From NCBI GenBank assembly GCA_034520945.1, contig JAXHNB010000002.1, positions 256,001 to 320,000 of the forward strand: a stretch of 64,000 bases of DNA, read 5' to 3'. This DNA comes from Trueperaceae bacterium (GTDB lineage Bacteria > Deinococcota > Deinococci > Deinococcales > Trueperaceae). Below the pieces are notes generated by a model. The model did no database searches. It was not told the DNA's origin and saw nothing but the letters and a program-made list of their open reading frames with translations. Below are positions 22,648-26,639 of this stretch, piece after piece. How positions within the stretch are numbered: position 1 is the first letter of the stretch; each line of letters opens with the position of its first letter. Position numbers and translations under genes: made by a program.

Positions 22648-23430
22648 ATCCGCGCTCAGACGATCTTTTTGCCGTTTTCGGCCGATCGGATGAGCGTAAG
22701 CGCAAAGCCGGATTTCGATCCGGAACTGCGCGTCCAACTCTTAGTACTTGCGACCGAGAAGGTTACGTTACTAAGGGCGCACGGTGGATGCCTTGGCACT
22801 CGAACCGATGAAGGACGTGGCTACCTGCGATAAGCCTCGGTGAGCTGGAAGCAAGCTTTGACCCGGGGATGTCCGAATGGGGAAACCCACGCGAGCGAAC
22901 CTCGCGTACCCATGCGTGAATCCATAGCGCATGTGGAGGGAACCCAGGGAACTGAAACATCTTAGTACCTGGAGGAAAATAAAGAAAACTCGATTCCCTT
23001 AGTAGTGGCGAACGAAGAGGGAACAGCCTAAACCGCCTCCTACGGGGGGCGGGGTCGTAGGACCGGCAACGTGGACCGGAATGCCTAGTCGAAGCGCACT
23101 GGAAAGGCGCGCCAGAGCGGGTGATAGCCCCGTAGACGAAAGGCGTGAAGGCCTAGCCGGCACCTGAGTAGCGCGAGCCACGTGGAATCTCGCGTGAATC
23201 CACGGGGACCACCCCGTAAGGCTAAATATTCCGAGTGACCGATAGCGAACCAGTACCGTGAGGGAAAGGTGAAAAGCACCCCGTGAGGGGAGTGAAATAG
23301 TACCTGAAACCGTGCGCTTACAAGCAGTCACAGCCCTATGCCCGTCTTCGGACGGGAACGGGTGGTGGCGTGCCTATTGAAGCATGATCCTGCGACTTAC
23401 TGACAGTGCCGAGTTTAAGCCGTTAGGCGG

Positions 23431-23463
<33 letters not shown>

Positions 23464-24731
23464 CAGGCGCTGTTAGTAGACCCGAAACCGGATGAGCTAG
23501 CCATGGCCAGGATGAAGCTCCCGTAACAGGGAGTGGAGGTCCGAACCCGTTGAGGTTTAAAACTCTTGGGATGAGCTGTGGTTAGGAGTGAAAAGCTAAC
23601 CGAATCCGGAGATAGCTGGTTCTCCCCGAAATAGCTTTAGGGCTAGCCTCGGGGGTTCACCGTTGGTTGTAAAGCACTGATTGGGCTAGGGGGCCCACCA
23701 GCTTACCAAACCCTGTCAAACTCTGAAGGCCAACGGTTCATACCCCGGGAGTCAGTCCGTGTGAGCTAACTTTCACGGACAAGAGGGAAACAACCCAGAC
23801 CGCCGGTTAAGGTCCCCAAGTCATGGCTGAGTGGAGAAGGATGTGGAGACGCTAAGACAGCTAGGAGGTTGGCTTAGAAGCAGCCATTCCTTGAAAGAGT
23901 GCGTAATAGCTCACTAGTCGAGCGTCTCTGCGCCGAAGATGATCGGGGCTAAGCCATGCACCGAAACCGCGGCAGTGCAGCCAAGCTGTACTGGGTAGGG
24001 GAGCGTTCCGTAGGCCGTCGAAGCGGTACCGCAAGGAGCCGTGGAGGTATCGGAAGTGCGAATGCAGGAATGAGTAACGATAAGAAGGGTGAGAATCCCT
24101 TCCGCCGAAAGCCCAAGGGTTCCTGAGCAAGGGTCGTCCTCTCAGGGTTAGTCGGGACCTAAGGCGAGGCCGAAAGGCGTAGTCGATGGACAGCAGGTCA
24201 ACATTCCTGCACCACTTTCGTGGAGCGATGGGGTGACGCATTAGGATAGGCCAACCGGAGCCACGGTCGAGCCCGGCGGCGTGCGAAGCCAGGGAGGATA
24301 GGCAAATCCGCCTCCCGTGTTGGTGACGTACGTCGGGAAGGCCCTACGGGGCTGATAACTGGTCGAATCCACGGTGCCAAGAAAAACCTCTAAGTGTCGA
24401 AGCGAGAGTGCCCGTACCAAAACCGACACAGGTGGGCGAGTGTAAGAGCACTAAGGCGCGCGAGAGAACTCTGGTCAAGGAACTCTGCAAAATGGCCCCG
24501 TAACTTCGGGAGAAGGGGTCCCACGCGTACGGTGATCATTCGTGATTGCCGGAGGTGGGCACAGTTAATTGGCTCCAGCGACTGTTTACCAAAATCACAG
24601 CACTCTGCGAACCCGAGTAGGGGATGTATAGGGTGTGACACCTGCCCGGTGCCGGAAGGTTAAGGGGAGGCGTGCAAGCGCCGAACTGAAGCCCCGGTGA
24701 ACGGCGGCGGTAACTATAACCGTCCTAAGGT

Positions 24732-25357
24732 TAAGTAACGCTAGCCTTAGTAAAACCGAACCATATGCGGGAAACTCCTCGAAAACCGTCCGGTACTCGC
24801 CGATGCTTCGGCAGTAAAAATCCGGCGGACATGGGGACGATCCGCAGGGAAGACTTGGTGAAGATGCCAAGAACCCTCAGAGACCATACGTTCGGGATCG
24901 ACGGGTGAAGCTCGACAGCCAATGGGTGGTCGGGTTCGTGGATGGCGAAGGGTGTTTTCACGTCGGGATTGCAACGCATGCCGACATGGCGGTGGGACGA
25001 CAGGTCCTGCCCGAATTCACCGTCGTCCAGCACGAGCGCGACGTCCAGGTGTTGCACGCGCTGAAAACGTTCTTCGGCTGCGGCGTGGTTCGAAGCAACC
25101 ACGGCGAGCGAATGGCGTATCGCGTGCGCACGTTCGAGCACCTGCACGATGTCATTGCCCCGTTTTTCATGAAGCACACCTTGAAGACGATGAAGAACGT
25201 CGACTTCAGAAAGTTTCGACAGGTGTTGCTCGCGATGAAGGACGGTGAGCACCTGACGCCGGAAGGCGTCGACAAGATCCGCCGATTGGCGGCGGAGATG
25301 AATCGTGGTCGATCAAGATAGAGTCCGGCCCTCCTGGAAACAGGATGGGATGAACCG
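24732..25357 (+). mobile_element. Group I intron at 23S position L1931 (E. coli numbering)
   Basis: Splits CCTAAGGT|AGCGAAATTCC. P1 CTAAGGT/GCCTTAG has a U-G pair at the splice site; P10 guide CGCT; P ATATGCGGGAAA; Q ATCCGCAG; R TCAGAGACCA; S AAGATAGAGTCC; P3 CCGAAC/GTTCGG; terminal G at 25357. Confidence 0.95.
24905..25321 (+). CDS. Single-motif LAGLIDADG homing endonuclease (intron-encoded)
   Basis: WVVGFVDGEGCF motif, EFTVVQH, FFGCGVV; 138 aa; the stop codon overlaps the S element. Confidence 0.93.
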   Translation: MKLDSQWVVGFVDGEGCFHVGIATHADMAVGRQVLPEFTVVQHERDVQVLHALKTFFGCGVVRSNHGERMAYRVRTFEHLHDVIAPFFMKHTLKTMKNVDFRKFRQVLLAMKDGEHLTPEGVDKIRRLAAEMNRGRSR

Positions 25358-25473
25358 AGCGAAATTCCTTGTCAGGTAAGTTCTGACCTGCACGAATGGT
25401 GTAACGACTGGAGTGCTGTCTCGACCAGAGACTCGGTGAAATTGAACTGGCCGTATAGATGCGGCCTACCCGC

Positions 25474-25505
<32 letters not shown>

Positions 25506-25658
25506 ACAGCTTGATGTTGGCGTTTGGACCGATCCGTGTAGGATAGGTGGGAGACTGGGAAGCCAGGCCGCTAGGCTTGGTGGAGTCATTGGTGAAATAC
25601 CACCCTGATTGGTTTGGCCGTCTAACCTGCGCCCGTTATCCGGGCGAGGGACAGCGTG

Positions 25659-25690
<32 letters not shown>

Positions 25691-25832
25691 CAAAGCGTAA
25701 CGGAGGCGCACAAAGGTTCCCTCAGCACGGTCGGAAATCGTGCATAGAGCGTAAGGGTACAAGGGAGCTTGACTGCGAGACATACACGTCGAGCAGGGAC
25801 GAAAGTCGGTCCTAGTGAACCGGTGGTACCTC

Positions 25833-25886
<54 letters not shown>

Positions 25887-25994
25887 ACCGCCCGAGAGTT
25901 CACATCGGCGGCGGTGTTTGGCACCTCGATGTCGGCTCGTCATATCCTGGGGCTGGAGAAGGTCCCAAGGGTCCGGCTGTTCGCCGGTTAAAAT

Positions 25995-26046
<52 letters not shown>

Positions 26047-26160
26047 GTGGGCGTAGGAAAACTGAGGAGAGCTGTTCCTAGTACGAGAGGACCGGAATGG
26101 ACGCACCGCTGGTTTCTCGGCTGTTCCACCAGGGGCATATGTCGAGTAGCTACGTGCGGA

Positions 26161-26195
<35 letters not shown>

Positions 26196-26390
26196 GACTC
26201 CAAGATGAGTTTTCCCACCTCCTCGTGAGGGTAAGTCCCCCGGTAGACCACCGGGTCGATAGGCCGGGAGTGTACGCACGGCAACGTGTTTAGCTGACCG
26301 GTACTAATCGGACGAGGACGTAACCTTTTTTGCAATCATCCTCGAGTTGGATGGCGTTTCGCTTCGTCTTCGCATTGTCACTATTTGTTT

Positions 26391-26510
<120 letters not shown>

Positions 26511-26563
26511 ATATTTTGCGAACGGAAGGCACCGACCCTGCGGGTGGGTGCCTTCTCGTCCTC

Positions 26564-26639
<76 letters not shown>

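Follow-up and report, generated by a model that had tools for sequence, protein, structure and literature searches.

A probable mobile group I intron of the L1931 lineage, with its LAGLIDADG endonuclease gene, in the 23S rRNA gene of a Trueperaceae-like bacterium

Group I introns that follow position 1931 of the 23S rRNA gene (site L1931) and encode a LAGLIDADG homing endonuclease have been described before, and in this article we analysed an element of this kind, 626 nucleotides (nt) long, in a stretch of 64,000 nt of Trueperaceae-like DNA (contig C2, positions 256001-320000; hereafter the window). In the accessible part of Haugen et al. 2007 the bacterial L1931 introns comprise one from Simkania (654 nt, with a protein of 143 amino acids, aa), two from Synechococcus (675 nt/162 aa and 666 nt/167 aa) and three from Thermotoga (about 699 nt/162 aa) (PMC1995217); for the T. 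neapolitana protein a maturase-like activity is mentioned in the available text of the review of Hausner et al. 2014 (PMC3984707). According to the accessible passages of Tsurumaki et al. 2024, group I introns of the Candidate Phyla Radiation (CPR)/Patescibacteria at 23S position 1931 and elsewhere encode LAGLIDADG_1 proteins, and rRNA introns are abundant in CPR and limited to few species elsewhere (PMC11270868). A 2025 paper, as far as its accessible text goes, also calls such introns rare in most bacteria (PMC12641178), and the available part of Nawrocki, Jones and Eddy 2018 reports many archaeal introns at position 1931 of the large subunit (LSU) rRNA, which were found by an IB4 subtype model (PMC6125680). 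In open-access full texts we found no survey of such introns in non-CPR bacteria and no report of a group I intron for Trueperaceae, where the sole match was unrelated by its title. Nor did these texts confirm L1931 as the site of the algal enzyme I-CpaI.

The element in the window is one more member of this known L1931 intron/LAGLIDADG family, and very probably a mobile group I intron that belongs to the L1931 lineage and resides in the single 23S gene of a Trueperaceae-like bacterium. An earlier note, made from the letters of the DNA, had placed a 626-nt insertion after U1931, and the junctions, the Rfam match and the alignment to E. coli all agreed with this placement. In the LSU alignment a single insertion of about 629 nt was seen between ...GUCCUA and AGCGAAAUUCC, and the junctions were read as ...CCTAAGGT before and AGCGAAATTCC... 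after the intron. For the site numbering the 3' exon (25358-25560) was aligned to E. coli genomes: its first base corresponds to locus base 2201, the annotated 2904-nt E. coli 23S gene begins at locus base 270, and the first 3'-exon base is thus E. coli 23S position 1932, with the insertion between 1931 and 1932. Because of this alignment the insertion site is L1931; it lies just after helix 69, within a highly conserved stretch of the 23S rRNA. The check with the group I covariance model was also positive, Rfam Intron_gpI (RF00028) matching 24699-25347 over the full model (1-253 of 253) with 53.1 bits, against a gathering score of 50, and an E-value of 1.2e-10. The parts of the element are as follows.

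24732..25357, + strand: group I intron, 626 nt, without P2 and with an extended P5 region (Rfam RF00028; junctions read from sequence)
24725..24731, + strand: 5'-exon end CUAAGGU, forming the 5' strand of P1; U24731 is E. coli U1931
24744..24750, + strand: internal guide sequence GCCUUAG, forming the 3' strand of P1; G24744 is in the splice-site U·G wobble
24739..24742, + strand: P10 guide CGCU, whose partner AGCG (25358-25361) makes up the first 4 nt of the 3' exon
24756-24761 / 24890-24895, + strand: P3
24766-24771 / 24841-24846, + strand: P4, enclosing P5, P5a and P5b (24766..24846)
24775-24778 / 24833-24836, + strand: P5
24786-24793 / 24822-24828, + strand: P5a
24799-24803 / 24808-24812, + strand: P5b
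24847-24849 / 24874-24876, + strand: P6
24854-24858 / 24867-24871, + strand: P6a
24880-24884 / 25323-25326, + strand: P7, formed by G[A]GAC with a bulged A (the 'R' element) and GUCC (the 'S' element)
24897-24902 / 25308-25313, + strand: P8, with the open reading frame (ORF) in its loop
25329-25336 / 25341-25349, + strand: P9 hairpin with a GAAA tetraloop
25357, + strand: terminal guanosine (omega G), the 3' splice site
24905..25321, + strand: homing endonuclease gene (HEG), 138 aa, GTG start, single LAGLIDADG motif (ORF list; Pfam PF00961)

The P1 U-G pair, P10, P3, the R and S elements of P7 (the guanosine-binding helix of group I introns) and the terminal G had already been named in the earlier note, and all of them were located at these coordinates. 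P2 is missing, the guide sequence being separated from P3 by 5 nt. An unconstrained minimum free energy fold of 24720-24910 yielded P1, P3, P4, P5, P5a, P5b, P6 and P6a with -71 kcal/mol (z = -3.3), and 0 of 200 shuffled sequences folded as well. The lack of P2, the presence of P5-P5a-P5b and an ORF which ends in J8/7 are traits of the L1931 lineage as it is characterized for Synechococcus in the accessible text of Haugen et al. 2007 (PMC1995217). The full group I architecture is more than chance, because of the Rfam E-value and since the same architecture, with covariation, was seen in 79 of the 82 related rows described below.

The 138-aa ORF with one LAGLIDADG motif, which had been noticed previously, proved to be intact. 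It starts 2 nt past the 5' strand of P8, its last codons double as the 3' strand of the same helix, and its TAG stop (25319-25321) lies within the J8/7 'S' element AAGAUAGAGUCC. Pfam LAGLIDADG_1 (PF00961) matched it in one stretch, residues 9-107, with an E-value of 5.2e-22 (79.1 bits against a gathering score of 23.1); the motif VVGFVDGEG occupies residues 8-16, and the catalytic position is Glu15. The best match among solved structures was PDB 5gkk_A (E 9.7e-50, residues 2-136), followed by both halves of the fungal enzymes I-SmaMI and I-OnuI and of related ones, and for a 76%-identical stand-in (P0006) the ESM Atlas returned only generic LAGLIDADG_1 clusters. Judged from its single-domain size and from the LAGLIDADG family, the protein would act as a homodimer. 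On the minus strand, opposite the endonuclease gene, there is an open frame of 173 aa (24731-25252); this frame and the other overlapping ORFs are probably by-products of the high G+C content opposite a conserved gene.

The L1931 intron-endonuclease unit is far commoner in bacteria than it was assumed in the earlier note, where bacterial rRNA group I introns had been called rare and those at L1931 had been assigned to algal organelles and a few bacteria such as Thermotoga and Simkania. A pattern-seeded scan over one genome per prokaryote species gave 267 candidate stretches, and at least 177 species genomes were found to encode a relative of the endonuclease. The window, a genome of the same genus (G010) and the best 80 of the 177 relatives (63-75% identity) were taken as a comparison set of 82 rows. 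Strict exon anchors of 20 nt recovered the two junctions in 62 of the 80 loci, and with shorter anchors the intron was located between CTAAGGT and AGCGAAATTCC in 79 of the 82 rows; the exceptions are L042, L058 and L087, of which two run up to the end of a contig. The 79 introns are 616-715 nt long and each of them (79/79) ends in G; in 66/79 the stop of the longest open frame is 35-38 nt short of the end of the intron, in J8/7, and the protein is exactly 138 aa in 64/79. By record titles, 15 named phyla are represented: Pseudomonadota (22), Chloroflexota (15), Acidobacteriota (8), Actinomycetota (5), Myxococcota (5), Gemmatimonadota (3), Chlamydiota (3), Planctomycetota (2), Deinococcota (2), Eiseniibacteriota (2) and five phyla with one row each, while seven rows have no phylum label. 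Many copies of the family are held by megabase contigs or complete chromosomes.

A database of 5.8 billion proteins contained 4446 clusters at E <= 1e-10 among 4496 candidates, where the closest protein was 77% identical and most of the 120 clusters listed were 138 aa long. The suggestion of a possible new meganuclease is not supported as it stands: the sequence is new, the best match being 77%, but it belongs to a family of thousands, mostly of 138 aa, from which a relative has a solved structure (5gkk). A new cleavage specificity is unlikely, because all members of the family sit at the same highly conserved target. No mobile vector of the intron could be identified in the phage and plasmid collections: the endonuclease protein had no match in the phage collection, the intron DNA had none in the plasmid collection in distant mode, and the protein matched only two Peribacillus records among the plasmids, with 33-37% identity. 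In these two unannotated records (NZ_CP110133.1 and NZ_CP110134.1, entered as Peribacillus plasmids) the LAGLIDADG protein matched at 10 and 4 places, respectively, a density which is unusual for a bacterial plasmid.

The constraint on the ribozyme was followed in the non-ORF parts of the 79 introns, which were aligned by MAFFT on sequence alone and gave 77 distinct rows, onto which the helices of the window were projected. P1 has standard pairs at all seven positions in 77/77 rows, the U·G included, and all 6 pairs of P3 are formed in 77/77 with CG-to-TA and AT-to-GC compensatory changes. P4 is always paired and nearly invariant (a single TA among the 77 rows at one pair), as is P7, whose four pairs are formed in 77/77. 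In P5a, P5b, P6, P6a, P8 and P9 up to six standard pair types were seen per position and 59-77 of the 77 rows were paired; compensatory changes on both sides of a pair are numerous in these helices as in P3, with many in P5a and P5b, the pairs of P6a occur as CG, TA, GC and AT, and strong covariation was seen in P8, where a position can have up to 6 pair types. For P10 the number of paired rows is 52-71 of the 77, depending on the pair.

On the protein side the window has the consensus residue in each of the 58 alignment columns with a conservation of 95% or more (58/58); Glu15 is kept in 79/79, and a start codon stands at the homologous position in 66/79 (ATG 57, GTG 8, TTG 1). The pairwise ratio of nonsynonymous to synonymous divergence (dN/dS) of the window ORF against seven relatives was 0.13-0.32. 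Because of the helix covariation, the conserved columns and the dN/dS values, both the RNA and the protein are under selection in the family, and the window copy is without defect. The purifying selection, together with the retention of all family-invariant residues including the catalytic Glu, fits an element that is still functional.

The homing intron is intact and most likely active, where we infer splicing, dimerisation and cleavage from the sequence. After transcription of the pre-23S rRNA the intron would fold into the P3-P9 ribozyme core, and the 5' exon would be aligned on the internal guide sequence through P1 with the U1931·G pair. An external guanosine at P7 is expected to cleave after U1931; then the terminal G and the 3' exon, held by P10, could be docked and the exons ligated, which would restore the rRNA around helices 69-71 with the predicted junction ...CCUAAGGU-AGCGAAAUU... 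The 138-aa protein made from the P8 loop may dimerise with itself, by analogy with its family, and the homodimer would cut an intron-less 23S allele near the insertion site, with a 4-nt 3' overhang as expected from the family, whereupon repair would copy the intron in (homing). Additionally, the protein might aid the folding of the intron by a maturase-like activity.

The genome to which the window belongs has 3.47 Mb in 10 contigs, with 97.36% completeness and 5.13% estimated contamination. In an Rfam scan of the whole window at gathering thresholds the host gene and its neighbours were found as listed here.

22761..26327, + strand: 23S rRNA gene, the host of the intron (Rfam RF02541, 2724.8 bits, model 1-2925)
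26393..26509, + strand: 5S rRNA, downstream of the 23S gene in the same operon (Rfam)
26564..26639, + strand: tRNA-Gly (GCC), downstream of the 5S (Rfam match 26564-26636; ARAGORN)

The 23S region matched one place in its own genome, hence the look for other rrl copies, which had been advised previously, returned none in the assembly. The host is most likely a member of the Trueperaceae (Deinococcota) according to the record titles of the exon matches, since the exon identities are highest to the same genus (95.6-96.9% to L003 = G010, L005 = G005 and L006 = G004) and, with 91-95%, to L063, a record with the title 'Deinococcota bacterium', and L032, titled 'Trueperaceae bacterium'; to other phyla they are 72-80%. 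A gene of the pyruvate:ferredoxin-oxidoreductase type (Pfam POR_N; hereafter POR) follows the 23S gene of the window at a distance of about 3.4 kb downstream, and its G010 homologue shares a G010 contig with the 23S gene. The genome has a split rRNA operon, with its only 16S gene on contig C5 (86379-87903, L092), unlinked from the 23S-5S-tRNA-Gly cluster (window 22761-26639), and the 23S-5S-tRNA order was also seen in 4/4 relatives scanned (L003, L004, L007, L008).

Among the 41 nearest genomes, the window's own (G000) included, 19 have this part of the 23S gene, 13 of them in the host family f1, and its state varies among them.

G000, G010 (same genus) and G018 (another genus): L1931 intron with ORF, 624-655 nt in the relatives
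G015 and G020: ORF-less group I introns at L1917 and L1931 (Rfam 50-76 bits)
G005, G011, G012, G013, G016, G019 and G021: 23S uninterrupted at L1931
G004: contig begins at the first 3'-exon base, cut at the junction

In the other families of the order all assembled copies from these genomes are uninterrupted. The same-genus contig G004:C180:1-337 (L006) starts exactly at E. coli position 1932, which suggests an assembly break at an intron junction, as for example in a mixture of intron-bearing and intron-less cells. In G015 (L007, minus strand, about 2430-1850) and G020 (L008) the two introns flank a 14-nt micro-exon, AACGGTCCTAAGGT. The L1931 intron of L008 ends in G; that of L007 has an apparent terminal A (...GATCGATA followed by AGCGAAATT), if the mature rRNA keeps the canonical sequence, and this would appear to be a non-canonical terminal nucleotide.

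A protein search over 364 genomes of the phylum, many of them draft bins where non-detection is not absence, found close homologues (66-75% identity) in 9 further genomes, that is in 10/128 of family f1 including G000, and in 0/236 of the other five families. This patchy distribution within f1 fits the gain-and-loss cycle of homing elements. One gene of the host family (G318:C12:325478-325885, 69% identical) contains an in-frame TAA, which fits the degeneration step of such a cycle. Only distant LAGLIDADG matches (30-34%) were present in six Deinococcota genomes (G282, G268, G304, G309, G345 and G188), two of the matches lying about 800 bases from each other in G282:C2:2790623-2792182; these may be endonucleases of other rRNA intron sites.

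The history of the element was approached by a protein tree, obtained by a quick search on 138 columns and containing many unresolved forks, and by the synonymous divergence (dS) of the endonuclease gene and of the POR gene. The tree clusters strongly by phylum, since it needs 25 label changes, where shuffled labels gave a mean of 45.5 and the minimum is 14. Cross-phylum placements are present as well, including Omnitrophota with Planctomycetota nested inside Chloroflexota, which are not proof of transfer because bins can be mislabelled. L040 (an Anaerolineales bin) and L065 (a 2059-nt contig titled Syntrophus aciditrophicus) have branches of 0 and 0.025 under different phylum labels, as would result from a transfer that is very recent or else from the mis-binning of a short rRNA contig. 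In the best tree the six host-family copies (window, G010, L012, L032, L046 and L063) stand on one side of a branch. The divergences within the family were the following.

G000 vs G010 (same genus): HEG dS 0.78, the lowest of seven comparisons; POR gene dS 0.72
G000 vs G018 (L012): HEG dS 1.44; POR gene dS 0.96

Since the endonuclease dS to the same-genus copy is about equal to that of the flanking host gene, a long residence is indicated and not a recent gain. In the simplest reading of these sequences the intron would have been present already in the common ancestor of G000 and G010 and later lost, or never fixed, in e.g. G005, and transfers between phyla would be placed further back in the history of the family. 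In its host lineage the element thus has the look of an old resident, vertically inherited and sporadically lost.

Two other accounts of the origin of the locus had to be weighed. That the rRNA locus was brought in from another organism by assembly or binning might be thought of in a 10-contig assembly with the above contamination estimate, as mis-binning of rRNA genes is common, and a chimeric assembly had been named in the earlier note as a fact that would overturn its interpretation. The locus is, however, inside a contig of more than 320 kb, its exons are 95-97% identical to three same-genus genomes, and synteny with the rRNA contig of G010 extends to the POR gene downstream. Furthermore, DNA-run contigs from X1 and X2 (a salt pan metagenome, possibly the source sample) cross both junctions with one letter different, and X3, a run of another study, has two separate contigs, one per junction, from a close variant. 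Because of the exon identity, the synteny and these junction-spanning contigs, we rejected a chimeric locus; it is very unlikely, and an artefact of this kind has hardly any probability left. No contig joint skipping 24732-25357, as an intron-less allele would give, was listed in X1-X3, where contigs drop rare variants. A recent horizontal acquisition from an unrelated organism, which is the horizontal acquisition of the earlier note taken literally, is in line with the occurrence of the family in 15 named phyla, with the 25 label changes in the tree against the minimum of 14 and with the cross-phylum pairs, and also with the identity of the window endonuclease to Acidobacteriota and Actinomycetota copies (72%), compared to 70% to the same-genus copy. 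Nevertheless the same-genus dS of 0.78 is the lowest of all and equals the 0.72 of the syntenic host gene, the six host-family copies are grouped in the best tree (support 73), the close homologues in the phylum are confined to f1, no close phage homologue was found and the plasmids gave only the distant matches mentioned above. If the acquisition is meant as recent, we hold it to be improbable.

As for the present function, the protein might now be mainly a maturase, i.e. a cofactor of RNA folding, in an element that is effectively fixed and immobile in its lineage. A maturase-like activity is known from the Thermotoga neapolitana 23S-intron LAGLIDADG protein, as the available part of the review states (PMC3984707). 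The dS parity with the host gene implies a long vertical residence without the need for homing, and a single rrl copy leaves no intragenomic target. On the other hand, pure maturases tend to lose catalytic residues, while here the catalytic Glu is kept in 79/79 and all highly conserved columns are intact; moreover, intron-less relatives in the genus and family (e.g. G005) offer targets, and the roles of maturase and endonuclease are compatible with each other, so this possibility is given a minor but real weight. Alternatively, the intron could be unspliced or poorly spliced and persist in, or fragment, the mature 23S rRNA. This is reportedly the case for the intron at the same site in Simkania, as Everett et al. 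1999 by their title described an unspliced group I intron in 23S rRNA. Against this stands that compensatory changes keep the ribozyme helices over 77 distinct sequences, which would hardly be expected if folding and splicing were not selected for, that the window copy has an intact P1, P7, P10 and terminal G, and that the insertion is in a highly conserved 23S stretch after helix 69 of the sole rrl copy; a failure of splicing is accordingly regarded as rather improbable.

An active, vertically inherited homing intron is thus preferred, and beside the Simkania report several further points count against it. The Rfam score is only 3 bits over the gathering score. The ORF begins with GTG and no strong Shine-Dalgarno sequence is evident upstream when the sequence is read. 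The support of the host-family clade is weak (73), the argument for vertical descent uses one host gene and some of the dS values are near saturation. The G010 endonuclease is on a long branch (0.57) and has a dN/dS of 0.32 against the window copy; because of this the constraint on the endonuclease is not uniform in the host lineage. The RNA runs contain only 13-19% of the sampled words. In one of them (X16) the joined-exon signal is limited to conserved exon pieces of 46 nt with loose ends of 14-16 nt, and these joined forms could be attributed to any intron-less bacterium, as the exon sequence is universally conserved; the same run has a piece of a related intron (24739-24784, depth 5.5), which is very short, 46 nt.

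The single element matters little, and the comparative result is more useful. The L1931 unit was found in genomes of 15 titled phyla, while rRNA introns are called rare in the accessible passages of recent papers (PMC11270868, PMC12641178). We propose tentatively, as a possibility somewhat short of probable, that the L1931 intron is a large, old and mostly vertically persisting resident of the 23S genes across free-living bacterial phyla, and no curiosity of some thermophiles, chlamydiae and organelles. If so, bacteria and not organelles would be the main reservoir of the L1931 lineage, the organellar origin of the bacterial copies and statements about few non-CPR species would need revising, and the window copy would be the first one described for Deinococcota. 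Insertions of this kind can affect rRNA annotation as well as primer- or probe-based surveys. The data also bear on the persistence of homing introns, as they permit a direct comparison of horizontal transfer and of vertical descent accompanied by patchy loss, and they provide a natural panel of thousands of homodimeric LAGLIDADG variants facing one conserved target, in which the evolution of specificity and stability might be followed.

Among the solved structures, chain A of 5gkk ('Putative homing endonuclease', 170 aa) shares with the window protein the single domain, the VGFVDGEGCF motif and the N-terminal length before the motif, and about 40% of the aligned residues differ; no paper on 5GKK was found in the full-text literature search. 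Each half of the I-OnuI/I-SmaMI enzymes matches the whole window protein (E about 1e-20 to 1e-25 per domain), and the fold family and the catalytic motif are common to them. However, these enzymes of fungal mitochondria are fused two-domain monomers of about 300 aa with asymmetric sites in protein-coding or rRNA genes, whereas the window protein has a single domain and must pair with itself. The archaeal IB4-type LSU/1931 introns, as the accessible text presents them, occupy the same rRNA position in another domain of hosts (PMC6125680). With the CPR/Patescibacteria enzymes the window protein has in common the single-domain LAGLIDADG_1 type and the 23S position 1931, within the accessible part of that source (PMC11270868), but the window host and most of the relatives are non-CPR bacteria, only one of the 80 related loci (L060) being titled 'Patescibacteria group'. 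The introns of Haugen et al. 2007, in the accessible text of that paper, have the same L1931 site and size class (654-700 nt published, 626 nt here); they too lack P2, their P5 region is complex, and their single-motif LAGLIDADG ORF begins in a peripheral loop and extends into the ribozyme core (PMC1995217). They differ from the window element by the published table in the length of the protein (143-167 aa compared to 138 aa here) (PMC1995217), and by the host, which is here a Trueperaceae-like member of the Deinococcota.

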